Shown here: in pieces, positions 3,001 through 27,947 of the stretch
How the letters are laid out: the number at the start of each line of letters is the position of its first letter
How positions within the stretch are numbered: the stretch's first letter is position 1
Origin: a virus
Taxonomy: Duplodnaviria > Heunggongvirae > Uroviricota > Caudoviricetes
Direction: 5' to 3' (one strand)
Length of the DNA stretch: 46,454 bases
Virus record (IMG/VR): IMGVR_UViG_3300043024_000042
Made by a program: the position numbers and the translations under genes
Notes under the pieces: model-generated
Told to the model about the DNA's origin: nothing
What the model saw: only the letters and a program-made list of their open reading frames with translations
The model's database searches: none

Positions 3001-6000
3001 CGTCAAGGCCTCGTATGCCGGTGCGCAGTACGAGAATAGGCTGGTGTTCACGTGCAACAAGCAGGTGTGCGGAGAGAACGCTTTGATTTATCAGTTGGCC
3101 CCATCTGTGAGCAGTGTGAAGATAGACGAAGAGGGTAACTACTCCGATGCGGTGCTCCAGGTGAAGGTAACGCGGTCGGACGGTAAGACCATCACCACTC
3201 CCGACACATTGCCCGACGGGTTGAAGATAACCTCCCAACTCCCCGGCGATACGGAGAAGGAGTATGCTTATAACTCCATCCTCGCCTTAAGCAAGAACCA
3301 AATCACGGGTAACGTGAAGTTCTTCCTCTATGCCGGGGATGTGCTTATCGACCAGGAGACCATTCCCATCCTGGAGGATGGCAAGAGCGTGATCATCGCG
3401 GACATGGATAACGAAATGGATGCGGTGGCTTGTGACGAGGATGGCAACGTCCTTGACGGATTCCTTCCCGTTTCGACCACTTACAAGATGTACGCAGGGT
3501 CCCAGCAACTCGCCCTCACCTCGTTGAAGGTGGACGGGATTTCGGGTGTGACGGCAACGGCAGATGCCGAGACGGGCGAGGTCAGCGTGACGGGTATTAC
3601 CAAGAGTGCGGACGCGACCCTTAGAATCCCCATCACGGGCACGGCCTATTTCGGAGGGATGATTTATTCACGCACGTTGTATTTCACGGTGAACAAGCAG
3701 ATATGTGGTGAAAATGCCGTTATCTATCAGTTGCTCCCTTCGGTGAGTGCCGTCAAGATAGACAAGTCGGGGACGTATATCCCCAAGACGTTGAAATGCA
3801 CGTTGAGATACACCAACGGCAAGACAGCCAGCGACACCTCGACCCTGCCAAGCGGTTACTCGATGAAGGTGTCCTACGGGAGCAATGCCGCCTTGAATTA
3901 TACGATAGGCAGTGCGTTGGACATCACGAATGTTTCCGACAGCGTGACGTTCTATCTCTACTCGGGTTCTACCCTTGTGGACAAGGAGACCGTTCCCGTG
4001 GTCGAGGACGGAGCGGACGGGCAGGTGAGTTTCACCTCGTTCGTGTTCAAGCGGACGAACAGCAAGCCTTCCACTCCTTCGGGAGGCTCGTTCCTTGACC
4101 CCATCCCCTCGGGCTGGGATGATACCATCCCCTCGGGAGAAGAGATAGCGTGGATGAGCAAGAGGATATTCACCTCCGATGGGGAGGCTCCGCAGGAAAA
4201 CGGATGGTCCGACCCTATACAAATGACCGATACGGCAGACTTCGATGTGGACTTCTGCAAAACGGAGACCTACGTCACACCCACGGGACACCCGAACACC
4301 GCCAGCGGATGGAGCAATGATGGTACGGATGCCATTTGGATGGCGACCTCGAGGAAATCCAATGGGGTGTGGACGGATTGGGTCGTGTCGAAGATTAAGG
4401 GGGAGAAAGGCGAGGACGGAGACGATGGCAGCAATGCGGACGCTTTCGAGATTCTTCCCTCCGTGCAGTATATCAAGATTGACGCAGACGGCAACCGTTC
4501 TGTAAAGTCGATAACCGTGGCCGTGAATTATATCTCCGGCACGAATGTAACGAAGGTCACTTCATTTAACAGCAGCAGTTCGATATACACGCATCCCCAA
4601 TTATGCTATCAGATTGACGGAGGAACTATTACGGAGACGAATATCGGCAAGAGCATTGACGTAAGCAAGGCGCAGAGCGTGGTGAAGATTATCCTTTACC
4701 AATACTATGGTTTCAGTAGTTTGAAGTTCGTCCGCACGGAGAAGGAGATTCAGGTCGTGTCAGATGGCACTAACGGTACTGACGGTGAGAATGGTGTTAC
4801 CGCATCATTCTATCGCATTACCCCATCCCATCTGCCCCTCCGTCAGAGCCGCACGGGAACGATAAGCCCGCAGTCCTTTGCGGTGACGTGTCAGAAGGTG
4901 GAGGGGTCAGCGGTAAGCGATGCCACCCCGACAAAATGGAGCGTGGAAGGTTCCACGGACGGGAGTTCCTGGACAACCTATTCCAGCAGCAACTACTCCA
5001 CGAGTGGCGCAACGCTTACCGTCAAGTCCATCAGCACGTCATACACCTTCTACCGCATCGGTGCTTATATTGGCAGCAGTTGGGTATACGCTTATGCAAG
5101 TATGTCCATTGACGGTAGCAATGGTGATGATGGCGATGGTATCGAGAGTATCGTGGAGAAATATGCCACCTCGACAAGCGGGACGACCGCCCCTGCGGAT
5201 AGCGAGTTCAAGACCACCATTCCAACCCTAAACAAGGGTTATTACCTATGGAACCAAGAGGTGATCACCTACACGATAAGCGGTGAGGTGAAGGGTGACA
5301 AGAAGGTTATCGGCTATGCGGGTGAGAATGGTACTGACGGAAAGGGTATTACCAAGGTGGAGGAATACTATTTGGCATCCTCCAAATCCTCGGGAGTGAC
5401 TAATGCCACGAGCGGGTTCACCACGGACTTGCAATCAGTGTCGGAGAGTGCCCCCTATCTGTGGAACTACTCGAAGATAACCTATACGGACAATACCACG
5501 ACCAGTTCGACCGCTGTAATTATCGGTATGTGGGTCAAGGGTGATACGGGTTCCATGCCGAGATATTGCGGTACGTATGATTCATCCACCTACTATACGT
5601 ATGACGCGAATTATCGTGACATCGTGGTTTATGGAGGGTCAGCATGGATTGTGAAGACGTATAACACGAGCAAGAAGGGTCAGACACCTTCCTCATCATC
5701 GAGTTTTTGGGAGGCTGCGACATCCTTCTCCTTCGTGGCGATGGACACCGCACTCATTGACGGGGCGAATATCGCAGGATTCGCGTTCAAGGATAACAAG
5801 ATGATGTCGCGGGACACCAATGGCAACTTGATTTTGGACGGAAAGAATGGTACGCTGGTAGCCAACGACATCACTGCCAATGGCACATTCGTCAGTGGCA
5901 CATCGGGAGGTCAGAGAGCGGAGTTGAGTTCCAATGACCTTGTTATCTTCGATGCGGACGGTAATGAGTGTAACAGATTCACGGGTACGAGCATAGGAAC

Positions 6001-9263: not shown

Positions 9264-11381
9264 ATGGCAAAAATTCCTTTGGGTCAGGTCTCCATCATCT
9301 ACAAGGGTGCGTGGGACAAGACCAAGACTTATTCGAGGAACCATGCGGTAAGCACATCGGATTCCTCTTATGTTTCCTTGAAGGACAACAACACGGGGCA
9401 TGAGGTCACGGACACGGAATGGTGGTACCCCTCCGCTTTGGGCACGCAGGCCACTGACGCCGCCGAGAAAGCCACCGCAGCGGCTAAGGCCGCCAACGAT
9501 GCCGCCACGACCCTGGCCCCCACCATCGAAGAGTTGCAGGACAAGATCGAGAAGGTGGACGCTTTGGCCAACCTCCAGCCGCGTTATTTCGTGGGCGGAT
9601 GGGTGGATAATAACCTGGATGCCGAGGCCAGCGAGACGCATGGTGACAAGTCGGTGTTGCAGGACTTGTACCGCCCCGTCCTTATCGACCATACGGACAA
9701 CACCGCTGGCGAGTTGAACAAGGCGAGGGTGCTGAAACAGAACAACACCTTCCGCTACGATGATGGCACGTTTGCCCCTGCCGTGGGTATCACGGAGACG
9801 GAGCGTGCGGAGTGCGATGTGGAACTTTACCTGGATGCGGAGGGCGCGAACAAGTACTGCGATGCCGGTGCTTTCGATGCGGAGGCCTTCTACAACGAGT
9901 ATGGTGTCACGCAGAAACTCTACAACGCATCGGGTGAGGAAGTCAGGGTGTTGCGCCCTTGGGAGACCACGCGCACCGACCTCTCCATTATGATTGCGAA
10001 CATCAAGCCCGTGATGTACCTTGGCGATGCCATCGGAAATACGGGCAAGCGTTGGAAGGGTGCGTTCCTATCGGGCACGGATTGGGACGGCATCGACCTG
10101 ACGAAGTGGACGTTGCAGCCTACCGCCTTCTCGCCTACGGGTGTGGGAACCATCAGTGGCAAGACGCGCAGTTTCTTCTTCGACTACGCTATCGGAGATA
10201 CCAACTCGCGCGGTGCGGCAGGCCTTAACTCCGCATGGAAGGTGTTCACGGGTGACGGGTTCTACCCCCGTACCAACGACTGCCAGCAGCCCACCATCAT
10301 GCAGTGGGCGAGGGCGAACAATAGCGATGCCAAGGCCAGTGTGCCGTTTGCCGAGGGCGGTTACTTCGCCTATGATGTGTTCAACGGCATCCACGAGGCC
10401 TTGTATGGTACGAACTATATCCACGACCCCAACCTCTTCTCCAGCGGTGTCTCATCGAACGACACCTGCACGGACGAGGCGACCTGGAAAGCCAACGGAG
10501 GCACGCGCACAAGGGCCGTGGGTACGGAGACCTGGCAGTACAAGAATTGGGGCGAGAGCGGTCAGATGTGGTACTCATCCGCCAAAGGCTCGAATATGTC
10601 CGAGATGCTGAACCAATACTGGGCCAAGGAGAAGGTGAACGAATCCCTCATGGTGGCCTCGTATATCAACGAGACGGGGCAGGCCGAGGGCGAAGAGTTC
10701 GAGTTATACGGCAGCACCTATTATTATAATAAGGTAAGCGGTGCGCTGGGCGATGGTATCAATATGCGCATCTACCGCGTGGTAAGGACGACCCTTTCGG
10801 GTTACACCACCGCGGGTGTGGCGCAGGACTTCGAGGTCGAGTTGATCCTCCGTTTCGGTGTGCTGGACGGATGCAGCCATTCGGGTGACGTGTGGAAGTA
10901 CTGCGGTGGCGGTGCGAGTGCCATCGGTACTTGTGCCAAGACCACGAGCGGTTCTGTGGGTAATCCCGTGGACCTCTATATCCAGCCCGACCAGTCGCAG
11001 TGGACCTACGAGACCGTGACCACGAAGAACAACCTCGGCAAATGGGATTTGGAGGATTCCTATATCTATATGGGACGCTCGTCCACCCTGGGCTATGCTT
11101 GGTCTGCCAAACGTATGGCTTTCACTCCGTGGAACACGAAGAATGGCGGTGGCATCAATACGGGTATGTGCTTTTACGCTTACGCGCTCAACTATTGGAG
11201 TACAACTCTCGACCAGCGCGTTCAAGTCGCTTTGCGTTTTGGCGGTTATGCTCATTATAGTCTTTGCGCCCGCAGGTTTCTTTATGCTAGTTTCGCGTGG
11301 AGTGTTACGTCCCGCGCTTATGGAGGGTTTGCTCAAGTTTTGATTGACCCGCAGGTCGGTGTGAACGAGCCGCAGGCTTAG
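9264..11381 (+). CDS. DGR target protein, probable receptor-binding tail-fibre protein (705 aa) with VR at the C-terminus
   Basis: The last ~50 codons contain VR (QVALRFGGYAHYSLCARRFLYASFAWSVTSRAYGGFAQV). The RFGG...R...GF pattern fits C-type-lectin-fold DGR targets. Confidence 0.85.
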   Translation: MAKIPLGQVSIIYKGAWDKTKTYSRNHAVSTSDSSYVSLKDNNTGHEVTDTEWWYPSALGTQATDAAEKATAAAKAANDAATTLAPTIEELQDKIEKVDALANLQPRYFVGGWVDNNLDAEASETHGDKSVLQDLYRPVLIDHTDNTAGELNKARVLKQNNTFRYDDGTFAPAVGITETERAECDVELYLDAEGANKYCDAGAFDAEAFYNEYGVTQKLYNASGEEVRVLRPWETTRTDLSIMIANIKPVMYLGDAIGNTGKRWKGAFLSGTDWDGIDLTKWTLQPTAFSPTGVGTISGKTRSFFFDYAIGDTNSRGAAGLNSAWKVFTGDGFYPRTNDCQQPTIMQWARANNSDAKASVPFAEGGYFAYDVFNGIHEALYGTNYIHDPNLFSSGVSSNDTCTDEATWKANGGTRTRAVGTETWQYKNWGESGQMWYSSAKGSNMSEMLNQYWAKEKVNESLMVASYINETGQAEGEEFELYGSTYYYNKVSGALGDGINMRIYRVVRTTLSGYTTAGVAQDFEVELILRFGVLDGCSHSGDVWKYCGGGASAIGTCAKTTSGSVGNPVDLYIQPDQSQWTYETVTTKNNLGKWDLEDSYIYMGRSSTLGYAWSAKRMAFTPWNTKNGGGINTGMCFYAYALNYWSTTLDQRVQVALRFGGYAHYSLCARRFLYASFAWSVTSRAYGGFAQVLIDPQVGVNEPQA
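11223..11339 (+). repeat. DGR variable repeat (VR), 117 bp
   Basis: Aligns without gaps to 11734-11850 with 17 mismatches, every one opposite an A in TR. Confidence 0.97.
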
Positions 11382-11508
11382 CGCAGCACGGCGCAGCCGG
11401 ACGCAGTAGGGGCGCAGCCCCGCCCGTGATATAGGAGGCCCGCGCGGGTGGGGCGCAGCCCCTTCGAGGAAAGAAAGGTGCGCAGCACCTTTTACGGCAC
11501 GCAGTGCC
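11346..11508 (+). other. Array of c(GCA)g triloop hairpins downstream of VR
   Basis: Examples: GGGGC-GCA-GCCCC twice (11409, 11450), AAAGGTGC-GCA-GCACCTTT (11474), CGGCAC-GCA-GTGCCG (11494), CGGC-GCA-GCCG (11389), AGCC-GCA-GGCT (11368). Confidence 0.85.
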
Positions 11509-11608
11509 GAAGGGGTATAAGCACTTTGGCTCTCAATCGGTTAGGTCGAAATGGTTCCTTTAGACGGGAGCAAATTAGGATTCTTTAAGGATTTTAATCC
11601 CGTGAATC

Positions 11609-11640
11609 CTTGGCTCGCATTGGTATTTTCCTTACCTTTG
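11609..11640 (+). promoter_or_regulatory. Bacteroidetes-type promoter for the TR-RT transcript
   Basis: TACCTTTG at 11633-11640 matches the TAnnTTTG -7 box; CTTG (a -33 variant) lies 20 bp upstream. Confidence 0.55.
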
Positions 11641-11733
11641 CACCCGTAAAAATTCTTACGTCTGCCGACAAGTTGAACATAGGGATTCATCCTCTGAAAC
11701 GGCAAAGTAAGGTTGGAACAATGAGGCTGTACA

Positions 11734-11850
11734 CAAGTCGCTTTGCGTTTTGGCGGTAATGCTAATAATAGTAATTGCGCCCGCAGGTATCTTAATGCTA
11801 ATAACGCGTGGAGTAATACGAACCGCAATTATGGAGGGTTTGCTAAAGTT
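11734..11850 (+). ncRNA. DGR template repeat (TR), 117 bp
   Basis: Non-coding copy of VR with 10 AAY codon positions and 32 adenines; lies between the target gene and the RT. Confidence 0.95.
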
Positions 11851-11999
11851 GAAATGAGCGGACAATAATAACGACCCGATAAGATGAGTGTACGGAACCA
11901 TGCCCGGAAGTGGCGGAAAAGTATAAGACCAGCACTTGTGATTGGAGAAGTGTGCAAGCATAAACTTGCGAAACGCTCAAAACTTGAATAATTATTAAC

Positions 12000-13373
12000 A
12001 TGATAGAAGTTGAGATTGGTTTTATTTTAAGACAGATTCACAAAGCATCCCTGGGCCGCAGAAAGCGCAAGGATGTGAAGGAGGCTCTGAATGAGATAGA
12101 CCATTACGCGAATATCATTAGGGAAGATATACGAACGGGAAATTACCTCTCCAAACTCCGTTACAAGGTCGGGGAGGTGACGAACAAGAACGGCAAGCAC
12201 CGCATCACCTACCAGCCCGATTTCTATACGCTGGTGGTGATTTACGTGGGGATAGGCTTGATACAGCCGTACTACCAAGAGGTGGACGTGCGCGTGGGCT
12301 TGAACTGCATCAAGCACCGCGGCATCACCGCCAAGGGCAGGAACAACTCGGTTGTCAAGCGAGCCAAGCACGCTTACTTCGACCGCCCCGATTTGACCTA
12401 TGTCCTTTCCATCGACATGAGAAAGTGCTATATGCACTTCCGTCCCGAGGTGGTGAGGAAAGCGTTGAAGGGTATCGGGGTAAGGAAGGAGTTGAACGAC
12501 TTCGTGCTGTCCCTAAGTTTTGTCGGGAAGGTATTCCCGGTGGGCACACCCTTGTCCCCTCTCATCCACCATATCGTATTAAGCAGTTACGACAGAAAGA
12601 TGAAGGGAGAGTGCATGACGCTGCGCTACGCGGACAACGTGTTCTGTTTCTGCAAGAGCAAGGAGCAGGCGCAGAGGTTGAAATGGCGCACGATGAATCA
12701 TTGGTGGTACGAGTTGAAGATTCGTGCCAAGCGTCACGAGATAAAGATAGTGCCCATGAGCGTTCCCCTGGATATTTGCGGATTCATCTTCCATCGCAAC
12801 CATCGGGCCATAACGAGCCACGACAAGGGATATGTGACCGTGAGGAAATCCACCCTAAAGACAGCCATGACTGCCACGGGTAGGAATTGGAGCAGTTACT
12901 TCGGTACATTGCAGAAGGCGGACACCTATTCACTTATGCGAAAAATAGAGCAGCGAATGAAACTGAAACAACTGACTGACAAGATACGAATCAAGCGGAA
13001 TCTCGATGCGAAGGAGATTCATCCCAAAGAACTTGCCGAGACGGGGCAGGTGTTCACCATTTACGATTATGAGATGCGGAAGGATTCCAAGGGCAACGCG
13101 AACTGGATCAAGTGCCTTATCGGTTATCCCGAGATGATAGATGGCGAGCCTACGGGACGGATAGCAGCGCGTGAGTTCCACGGAGGGTTCTCTTGTTTGG
13201 TCGAGTTCCATACGCTGGTCGAGCGGCAGTACGGACAGAAACAGAACTTCCTCCCCATCGAGGATGTTTCCATCGAGAACCACTGCGGCTATGTGTATAA
13301 GGATTCAACGAATACTATTGATTACATCGAAGATGAAAGCAGTGAACAAGATTCAGGTCGCCTCTTCGCGTGA
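12000..13373 (+). CDS. DGR reverse transcriptase with C-terminal extension (457 aa)
   Basis: RT motifs LSIDMRKCY, FPVGTPLSP, LRYADNVF, LDICGFIF; adjacent to the TR/VR pair. Confidence 0.92.
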   Translation: MIEVEIGFILRQIHKASLGRRKRKDVKEALNEIDHYANIIREDIRTGNYLSKLRYKVGEVTNKNGKHRITYQPDFYTLVVIYVGIGLIQPYYQEVDVRVGLNCIKHRGITAKGRNNSVVKRAKHAYFDRPDLTYVLSIDMRKCYMHFRPEVVRKALKGIGVRKELNDFVLSLSFVGKVFPVGTPLSPLIHHIVLSSYDRKMKGECMTLRYADNVFCFCKSKEQAQRLKWRTMNHWWYELKIRAKRHEIKIVPMSVPLDICGFIFHRNHRAITSHDKGYVTVRKSTLKTAMTATGRNWSSYFGTLQKADTYSLMRKIEQRMKLKQLTDKIRIKRNLDAKEIHPKELAETGQVFTIYDYEMRKDSKGNANWIKCLIGYPEMIDGEPTGRIAAREFHGGFSCLVEFHTLVERQYGQKQNFLPIEDVSIENHCGYVYKDSTNTIDYIEDESSEQDSGRLFA

Positions 13374-13728
13374 GACGGACGACAACAAGGGCCTTACCGA
13401 ATGGAAGGACGGAAAGTGCATTTCCCTTGACGAGGGCACGAAAATCAGTTATTATATCGGCCATGAGGTCGTAAGACGCATGGAGGACGAGAAGGAGGTG
13501 GAGGTCACTCTTGCCTTCCCTATCCGTGTGGATAAACCCGCCAAGCGTGACGCGCTCATCAATGCGGCTGAAATGGCCGCGTACAGCCTGCGTACCCCGA
13601 TGGATGTGGCCTCCTTCACGGCCTCCCTCGCCCGCAAGTCACGGGAAAACGCGGACGATGAAGAGGTCAAGGAACATGACGCGTTCATCGCCTGGGTGAA
13701 GGACGAACTGACGAAAATCGGCAAATAA
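13333..13728 (+). CDS. Hypothetical protein (131 aa) overlapping the RT 3' end
   Basis: ATG at 13333 (MKAVNKIQV...); open to TAA 13728; codon usage like neighbouring genes. Confidence 0.7.
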   Translation: MKAVNKIQVASSRETDDNKGLTEWKDGKCISLDEGTKISYYIGHEVVRRMEDEKEVEVTLAFPIRVDKPAKRDALINAAEMAAYSLRTPMDVASFTASLARKSRENADDEEVKEHDAFIAWVKDELTKIGK

Positions 13729-27440: not shown

Positions 27441-27947
27441 ATGGCATTGACAATGTACGGGCGAATCCTTTCGATAGGACAGACCCTCACCACTCCGTCC
27501 AAGGACGGAACAAAAACCTACACGTCCCGCAGTCTTGTCCTGGACTGCACGACCACAAGTTCTACCGGGCAGGTATTCAAAAGCACCCCGCAGTTTGAGT
27601 TTGACGGGAACCTTTGCCCCGAACTGGATAAGTATGTGGCAGGCCAGCTCGTGGCTATCACATTTGAGTTGCGCGGTGTGGAATACATCGACAAGAAAAC
27701 GAACGCGCCCAAAATCTTCAACCGGATACGTCCGTACAAGATTGAGCCTTACCAGCCAGCAGGATACGGACCGCAGCCCGCGCAACCCGCCATGCAGCAA
27801 TCGGCACAGCCTGCTTACCCACCCCAGCAGCCGGTAGCACAGCCTGCATATCCTCCGCAGCAAGGAGTGCAACCGCCCTATCCGCAGCAGGGATACCAGC
27901 AGCCCGCTTACCCACCGCAGGCCGGTAATGACAATCTGCCCTTCTAA
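27441..27947 (+). CDS. DUF3127-family OB-fold ssDNA-binding-like protein with Gln/Pro-rich tail
   Basis: N-terminal GRIL...SKDG...VAITFELRG; QPAYPPQQ repeats; ends NDNLPF like an SSB tail. Confidence 0.75.
   Translation: MALTMYGRILSIGQTLTTPSKDGTKTYTSRSLVLDCTTTSSTGQVFKSTPQFEFDGNLCPELDKYVAGQLVAITFELRGVEYIDKKTNAPKIFNRIRPYKIEPYQPAGYGPQPAQPAMQQSAQPAYPPQQPVAQPAYPPQQGVQPPYPQQGYQQPAYPPQAGNDNLPF

Follow-up and report, generated by a model that had tools for sequence, protein, structure and literature searches.

Tandem GCA-loop mini-hairpins follow the variable repeat in a clade of diversity-generating retroelements of Bacteroidales phages

The virus record IMGVR_UViG_3300043024_000042 (IMG/VR; Caudoviricetes), whose whole 46,454-nucleotide stretch is called the window here, is from a Bacteroidales phage and carries a complete diversity-generating retroelement (DGR) on its + strand. 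Just 3′ of the variable repeat (VR) of this DGR, at 11346-11509, lies a dense array of small hairpins on the + (sense) strand, made up of eight triloop hairpins of the C(GCA)G kind, their stems 2-8 bp long, and one hairpin with a CGCA loop, together with one palindrome. Tandem hairpins of this kind are the rule in the clade of reverse transcriptases (RTs) to which this DGR belongs; only the number in the window, 8-9, is exceptional, and it is the largest array seen. By analogy with the BPP-1 DGR, we consider it about 60% probable that the array is a cis-acting 'recipient' mark of the DGR, this clade's version of the BPP-1 homing hairpin built from GNA mini-hairpins in tandem. The clade-wide array is apparently an undescribed build of a known DGR target hairpin.

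The DGR is identified by adenine-confined differences between its repeats and by the adjoining RT gene. The VR (11223-11339, + strand), at the 3′ end of the target gene, is a 117-nt match to the template repeat (TR; 11734-11850, + strand, 117 nt) with 85.5% identity, and all 17 mismatches are at TR adenines. The RT gene (12000-13373, + strand; 457 aa) matches Pfam RVT_1. The array therefore stands after the VR, as the initial annotation had it, and all the hairpins listed there are in the sequence, with the sole correction that the last one starts at 11495, not 11494. Numbering the hairpins from 0 along the + strand, hairpin 0 (11346-11357) is the one with the four-nucleotide loop, GACC-CGCA-GGTC, which can alternatively be read as CC-GCA-GG; it appears both in the sequence and in the DNA fold. 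Hairpin 1 (11368-11378) is AGCC-GCA-GGCT. These two start 7 and 29 nt after the VR end and lie inside the target open reading frame (ORF), making up two of the nine hairpins in the array. Mini-hairpin 2 (11381-11387), GC-GCA-GC or d(GCGCAGC), has a 2-bp stem whose first G is the last base of the TAG stop codon. It is followed by hairpin 3 (11389-11399; CGGC-GCA-GCCG), by mini-hairpin 4 (11401-11407), AC-GCA-GT or d(ACGCAGT), which also has a 2-bp stem, and by hairpin 5 (11409-11421; GGGGC-GCA-GCCCC). Hairpin 6 (11450-11462; GGGGC-GCA-GCCCC) is an exact copy of hairpin 5, and the palindrome CCCGCGCGGG (11439-11448), which has no strand, lies between the two. Hairpin 7 (11474-11492) has an 8-bp stem, AAAGGTGC-GCA-GCACCTTT, followed by one more T, and is weakly terminator-like. 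Hairpin 8 (11495-11509; CGGCAC-GCA-GTGCCG), with a 6-bp stem, is again found in both sequence and fold. Stem lengths across the array are thus 2, 2, 4, 4, 4, 5, 5, 6 and 8 bp. Hairpins 5 and 6 can alternatively pair with each other as a longer, imperfect inverted repeat (11409-11462), and minimum-energy folds favour this pairing of both copies.

The array is confirmed to lie far beyond chance. On the + strand, 11350-11504 contains nine copies of CGCAG, against a window average of about 1 per 650 nt per strand, and the − strand of this segment contains none. A count of C(GCA)G hairpins with stems of at least 4 bp over the whole window yields six on the + strand, every one inside 11368-11509, and a single one on the − strand, outside the array. 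When the 163-nt array region (70% G+C) was shuffled 5000 times with dinucleotides preserved, hairpins with stems of at least 2 bp averaged 0.38 with a largest count of 4, against 9 observed, and those with stems of at least 4 bp averaged 0.03 with a largest count of 1, against 6 observed. An independent Logan contig (L090), whose RT is 98% identical, carries all of the hairpins base for base, so the array is not an assembly artefact; over 11300-11560 this contig has five substitutions relative to the window, and all five are between hairpins. A second + strand cluster of CGCAG, at 27740-27940, does not form hairpins and is a Pro/Gln-rich low-complexity coding repeat of CCGCAG/CAGCAG codons. 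A small ORF within the array (AGGAGG at 11433-11438, GTG at 11448, 45 codons) was dropped as a candidate gene, its AGGAGG being AGTAGG in L090.

Conservation was assessed in the large RT family of the window, with members of 440-470 residues that are 37-50% identical to the window RT. A metagenome scan gave 80 loci, in 59 of which a VR with adenine-specific differences could be located upstream of the TR; with one contig from a viral-contig scan (L002) and the window, these yielded 54 distinct VR-to-TR spacers and 29 representatives less than 90% alike, with RTs 41-50% identical. Perfect triloop hairpins with a stem of at least 4 bp were counted on the sense strand in the 160 nt around and after the VR end, with a counting limit of 150 nt. 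The 29 representatives hold 108 such hairpins, 67 of them with a GCA loop, or 14.4 per kb, compared with a background of 0.047 GCA hairpins per kb in 362 kb of sequence flanking these loci, with hairpins on both strands included. No representative lacks a GCA hairpin (two in 16, three in seven, five in two). The two with five are the window, whose sixth hairpin is beyond the 150-nt limit, and the representative of the epsilon crAss-like phages, which have 5 or 6 GCA hairpins when 2-bp stems are counted, with stems that differ from those of the window. In a second set, drawn from Bacteroidales genomes and metagenome-assembled genomes (MAGs), GCA hairpins with new stem sequences follow the VR in 17 of 17 loci where a VR was found, spanning Prevotellaceae, Odoribacter, Parabacteroides, Bacteroides, Phocaeicola, Lentimicrobiaceae and Paludibacteraceae. 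Overall, the relatives have 1-6 GCA-loop hairpins per locus within 130-170 nt after the VR, apart from one distant locus with other loops.

Position, strand and loop are all tightly constrained in these relatives. In 28 of 29 representatives the first GCA loop follows the VR end at a distance of 7-30 nt. In the 150 nt after the TR, 28 of 29 have no GCA hairpin and the remaining representative has a single one. CTGCG, the reverse-strand motif, is absent from all 54 distinct spacers. The closing pair is T-A (39) or C-G (28) in 67 of 68 GCA hairpins, and 116 of the 151 GCA trinucleotides in the first 130 nt after the VR are in a TGCAA or CGCAG context. A distant locus with a 39%-identical RT has four GCA hairpins, and in the locus with a 37%-identical RT, T-A pairs close loops that read GGA and GAA. 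What is conserved is therefore the GNA class, usually in its GCA form. Successive GCA loops are 9-11 or 20-21 nt apart in 61 of 84 intervals in the window and its relatives, and the first seven loops of the window (11350-11454) are separated by 21, 11, 10, 10, 11 and 41 nt, which is roughly a helical turn for each unit. A general helical phasing was rejected: the epsilon crAss-like group is spaced at 13-16 and 25 nt, and the last two loops of the window are out of phase. The spacing may reflect only the tight packing of 7-13-nt hairpins. Two peculiarities of the locus sets should be recorded. In L002 (IMG/VR contig 3300001598_000203) the RT is split into overlapping ORFs (4004-4375 and 4375-5337) by a frameshift or sequencing error, and one clade locus (DAIOUZ010000005.1) lies in a MAG labelled Candidatus Limiplasma (Firmicutes), probably a phage contig placed there by a binning error.

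The stems of these hairpins covary while the loop does not change. An alignment of 25 representatives around the VR end, reaching 20 nt to its 5′ side and 75 nt to its 3′ side (alignment A3), brings into register a 7-nt mini-hairpin and two longer hairpins, A and B. The three G-C-A loop columns are invariant. In hairpins A and B, 95.7% of cells are paired and both-side (compensatory) changes occur in 9 of 12 pairs; none of 500 shuffles matched either the observed pairing or the covariation score, and sliding the 3′ partner by 1-3 columns reduced pairing to 21-47%. The mini-hairpin, N-Y-GCA-R-N′, has a stem of only 2 bp; its pairing holds in 49 of 50 cells, and the exchanges GC↔AT and CG↔TA are coupled. 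Two of its three common forms, GCGCAGC and ACGCAGT, are those of mini-hairpins 2 and 4 in the window: mini-hairpin 2 belongs to the same 7-mer class, and the 7-mer of mini-hairpin 4 is found at the relatives' conserved mini-hairpin position. Selection has therefore acted on pairing and on the loop, not on the sequence of the stem, as the initial annotation had suspected. The scan proposed there, for GNA arrays with stem covariation 3′ of related VRs, has turned up both, in the 29 representatives and in the 17 further loci.

The closest described counterpart is the BPP-1 DGR, whose hairpin/cruciform, required directly after the VR, combines an 8-bp GC stem with a GAAA loop on the sense strand; the sequence of the stem is free, that of the loop is not (PMC3240598). 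In related phage DGRs the hairpin, with a stem of 7-10 bp and a GRNA loop, stands 4-34 bp after the VR (Guo et al., 2011, PLoS Genet 7:e1002414, PMC3240598), and these criteria have been reused by myDGR (PMC6602519). In the window array, as with the BPP-1-type hairpin, an inverted repeat stands immediately behind the VR and none behind the TR (no hairpin within 150 nt). The first copy falls within the 4-34 bp range, with which the 7-30 nt of the representatives essentially agrees, and the array overlaps or abuts the stop codon. As in BPP-1, pairing in the clade is kept while the stem sequence is free, which is seen by comparison among the relatives only, and the loop is conserved and sense-strand-specific; it also starts with G and ends with A, so that a sheared G-A pair is possible. 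The clade differs in having a 3-nt GCA rather than a 4-nt GRNA loop, stems of 2-8 rather than 7-10 bp, and 2-9 tandem hairpins rather than one, and in its DGR, which lacks Avd, the RT is long and extended by a C-terminal domain. The hairpins of the clade would escape the myDGR rule.

Trinucleotide-loop hairpins are not wholly new to DGRs. Nanoarchaeal (DUSEL4) DGRs carry, within the target gene, single hairpins whose GRA trinucleotide loop is highly constrained (Paul et al., 2015, Nat Commun 6:6585, PMC4372165). Those of the window resemble them in the G-N-A triloop and, for two of the nine, in lying in the coding end of the target gene. The nanoarchaeal hairpins differ in being single, GRA and archaeal, whereas the middle base in the clade described here is C, not a purine (G or A in one distant relative), and the hairpins are in tandem in Bacteroidales phages. 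The loop itself has a well-studied chemistry. The stability of d(GNA) loops is very high and depends strongly on the closing pair, a G:C in place of a C:G costing about 3 kcal/mol, and d(gcGCAgc) is among those studied (PMC3201870). GCGNAGC heptamers survive 7 M urea and resist nucleases (review PMC13037366). The array holds five exact copies of d(GCGCAGC), the mini-hairpin of Hirao and colleagues, on the + strand (11381, 11391, 11412, 11453 and 11480), and its preference for C:G closing pairs agrees with the energetics; d(GCGNAGC) is a physico-chemical motif, so far not described as a DGR element or as an array. The same RT clade includes the DGR of crAssE-Sib (GenBank OR575929; PMC11054128), which shares the target-VR-spacer-TR-RT layout of the window, lacks Avd and has 5-6 GCA-loop hairpins after its VR (L086:2240-2330). 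The published annotation of that genome gives the VR, the TR and the initiation of mutagenic homing sites (IMH and IMH*) only, and the hairpins are not mentioned (Viruses 2024, PMC11054128). Our literature search, with subscription journals outside its coverage, found no description of triloop arrays in DGRs, and an earlier description is possible. The initial annotation knew of single hairpins at this position and not of arrays; within this clade, tandem hairpins are no peculiarity of the one locus.

A DGR-linked recognition element, as first suggested, is well supported, since the hairpins follow the VR and not the TR and are always on the sense strand. By analogy with BPP-1 we infer a function in retrohoming or RT loading. 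A retrohoming element acting at the DNA level is favoured over an element of the mRNA because the array follows the VR and not the TR, and because it begins a few nucleotides past the VR/TR homology with its first units overlapping the last codons and the stop. Mini-hairpins of the d(GCGCAGC) type have exceptional stability in DNA even when the stem is 2 bp; the 2-bp stems conserved here are thus sensible as DNA and would be unstable as RNA. The hairpins would function in the DNA of the sense strand, while that strand is unpaired or after supercoiling has extruded them, and would help the complex of complementary DNA (cDNA) and RT to find or use the VR end. They might be bound by the RT complex, perhaps by an oligonucleotide-binding (OB)-like C-terminal domain of the Avd-less RT, or they might stall synthesis, so that the antisense cDNA would find the VR sense strand uncovered. 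The surplus copies in the window, probably products of local duplication, may make the process more efficient by their redundancy. A more specific proposal, which we regard as doubtful, is that the Avd-less clade, including the crAss-like phages, has a homing mechanism of its own, in which the OB-like domain of the RT would read tandem d(Y-GNA-R) mini-hairpins of the sense strand on a single-stranded target, e.g. the lagging-strand template, and the number of hairpins (2 to 9) would set the rate at which the tail-fibre tip is rewritten. The + strand holds more G than C over nearly the whole window, which fits the sense strand being the lagging-strand template and could equally reflect the direction of transcription.

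The candidate reader is a C-terminal extension of the RT (residues ~347-436, at ~13038-13307) that is conserved across the clade (alignment A4). Its AlphaFold2 model (predicted local distance difference test score, pLDDT, of 87) has the order strand-strand-strand-helix-strand-strand, which is that of an OB fold. The RT tail has no match in Pfam or PHROGs. A domain that may bind single-stranded DNA, fused to an Avd-less RT beside hairpins of a single-stranded DNA type, would be an attractive pairing, to be taken as a lead only.

Several points weigh against reading the array as a homing mark. The homing role is argued from analogy with BPP-1 and Legionella, and the choice of DNA over RNA only from the 2-bp stems, the chemistry of the loop and the overlap with coding sequence; G-T versus A-C mismatches in the stems, which could tell the folding strand or molecule, number five in all, too few to do so. 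By the published rules the window falls short on two counts, because its sole stem of at least 7 bp lies 135 nt after the VR in place of a GC-rich 7-10-bp stem near it, and because its loops are the 3-nt GCA, with CGCA as the one 4-nt loop, in place of GRNA. Confident inverted repeats were found in only 34% of DGRs (Wu et al., 2018), and such hairpins are therefore not universally needed. The link to an OB fold is weakened by a Foldseek search of the C-terminal domain against the PDB, which gave no match; an exhaustive VIA structure search returned nearly all SSB, PriB and RPA-like OB folds, with indecisive Z scores of 3.3-5.6. Finally, the extra copies in the window could be neutral duplications.

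This last possibility can be put more generally: only a core of two or three hairpins would be functional, and the expansion to 8-9 would be (nearly) neutral slippage or duplication of a self-complementary unit of 10-13 nt, a multivalency without a function of its own. The 13-mer GGGGCGCAGCCCC occurs twice in the array in identical copies (hairpins 5 and 6), and Tandem Repeats Finder reports a degenerate repeat at 11381-11418 (period 10 nt, 3.7 copies, 73% matches); local duplication of a unit is therefore the probable source of the 8-9 copies. Two or three hairpins also suffice in most relatives, and the VR-to-TR spacer of the window (394 nt, 11340-11733) is the longest of the 54 distinct spacers, which range from 136 to 394 nt. 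However, every extra copy has a perfect stem and a C-GCA-G core despite the differing stems, unlike decaying neutral repeats; the substitutions in L090 all avoid the hairpins; and the independent epsilon crAss-like lineage, including OR575929, keeps 5-6 hairpins with different stems. We consider such a (nearly) neutral expansion unlikely. It is very improbable, in our judgement, that the array lies outside the workings of the DGR altogether, as a single-strand initiation, pausing or protein-loading site of phage replication or recombination (similar to a G4-type origin, ssiA or an N4 hairpin promoter). GNA mini-hairpins are known at single-stranded DNA phage origins, ssi sites and N4 promoters (review PMC13037366), and the loops are ~10.5 nt apart in many lineages, but the element travels with the VR, at a constant distance and always on the sense strand, across very different phages and prophages of many Bacteroidales families, including 150-kb crAss-like genomes. 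It has no other copy in the 46-kb window, nor any beyond chance in the 362 kb of relatives' flanks.

An element of the RNA would fold in the 3′ end of the target mRNA and serve as an exonuclease block, attenuator, terminator or protein site, with a link to the VR that is only positional. The region does fold more stably than shuffles as RNA too (z = -3.1), most of the hairpins in the window come after the stop codon, hairpin 7 with its 8-bp stem and TTTT has a weak likeness to a terminator, and a contig from an RNA library covers 11199-11407, though such libraries can contain DNA. Against this, a strict GCA loop with an exclusive Y-R closing pair is foreign to terminators and stabiliser hairpins, the covarying 2-bp stems would not hold as RNA, and ribosomes unwind the first one or two hairpins, which fall within the ORF. 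In many relatives the GCA hairpins are followed by a distinct canonical terminator (accgccc-TTCG-gggcggt and a T run), then by the motif TAnnTTTG, a structured element and the TR, so that the GCA hairpins are not the terminator and would lie outside the template RNA. A scan for intrinsic terminators in 11200-12050 found none; only hairpin 7 has TTTT, and three of these T belong to its stem. Rfam 15 gave no family match, its only hit being at chance level (HgcG, 12.4 bits against a gathering score of 77). An RNA element is accordingly improbable, and a DNA-level mark for homing remains the reading that we prefer.

Downstream of the array, TACCTTTG (11633-11640, + strand) fits TAnnTTTG, which we take to be the Bacteroidota -7 promoter motif, and the relatives have TAnnTTTG at the same aligned position. 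It is a candidate promoter of the TR RNA, and the array would therefore lie outside the template RNA in the window as well; a promoter scan of the window region found nothing. Directly 5′ of the TR is a structured element (11654-11712, + strand), for which RNAalifold on 27 relatives (alignment A6) gives 16 pairs, all 16 with compensatory changes in some sequences. It contains the conserved boxes CAAG...GCA..GGGAC...CTGAA, has no family in Rfam and is probably the 5′ arm of the DGR RNA.

The target gene (9264-11381, + strand; ORF list) encodes 705 aa and ends in a TAG stop at 11379-11381. Its N-terminus is tail-fibre-like, matching a tail-fibre PHROG family, and a Pfam search gave no family. 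Searches of the neighbouring ORFs with Pfam and PHROGs found no Avd-like gene near the RT; these included the ORF directly after it (13333-13728), which has no match in either. Neither the window nor the locus of any relative yielded a further VR copy. A search of phage collections with 11000-12100 returned a 70%-identical TR in crAssE-Sib as its sole match.

The DGR is active in the population. Two near-identical copies of the phage, L090 and the RNA-library contig, carry other VR variants: the RNA-library contig has 15 VR differences from the window, all 15 opposite TR adenines, and the VR of L090 has several substitutions in the same TR-adenine pattern. A search of sequencing runs gave four partial contigs of the window phage, which show other VR variants. 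The DGR has therefore worked with the array in place. Another contig with a 99%-identical RT (IMGVR_UViG_3300035505_000128) has its VR and TR fused into one chimeric repeat at 1949-2065. It was unusable for comparing the array, because the whole spacer corresponding to 11340-11733, hairpins and promoter motif included, is missing. The fusion is most likely an assembly collapse across the DGR repeats, and is a caution for DGR surveys that use short-read contigs.

Of the ways in which DGRs recognise the DNA that they rewrite, one alone has been dissected, the BPP-1 hairpin with its single GRNA loop. An abundant clade of gut-phage DGRs has another candidate mark that is easy to spot, a tandem series of GNA-triloop mini-hairpins, always on the sense strand. 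Current annotation tools, which look for 7-10-bp stems with a 4-nt GRNA loop, miss these hairpins, and the fraction of 'hairpin-less' DGRs may therefore be overestimated. The conserved, covarying 2-bp stems point to recognition of single-stranded DNA, which restricts models of cDNA integration. The hairpins would also be compact parts for engineered targeted mutagenesis in Bacteroides. With its natural series of 1-9 hairpins and an Avd-less RT, the clade is a simple system in which to ask whether hairpin copy number tunes the rate of diversification.

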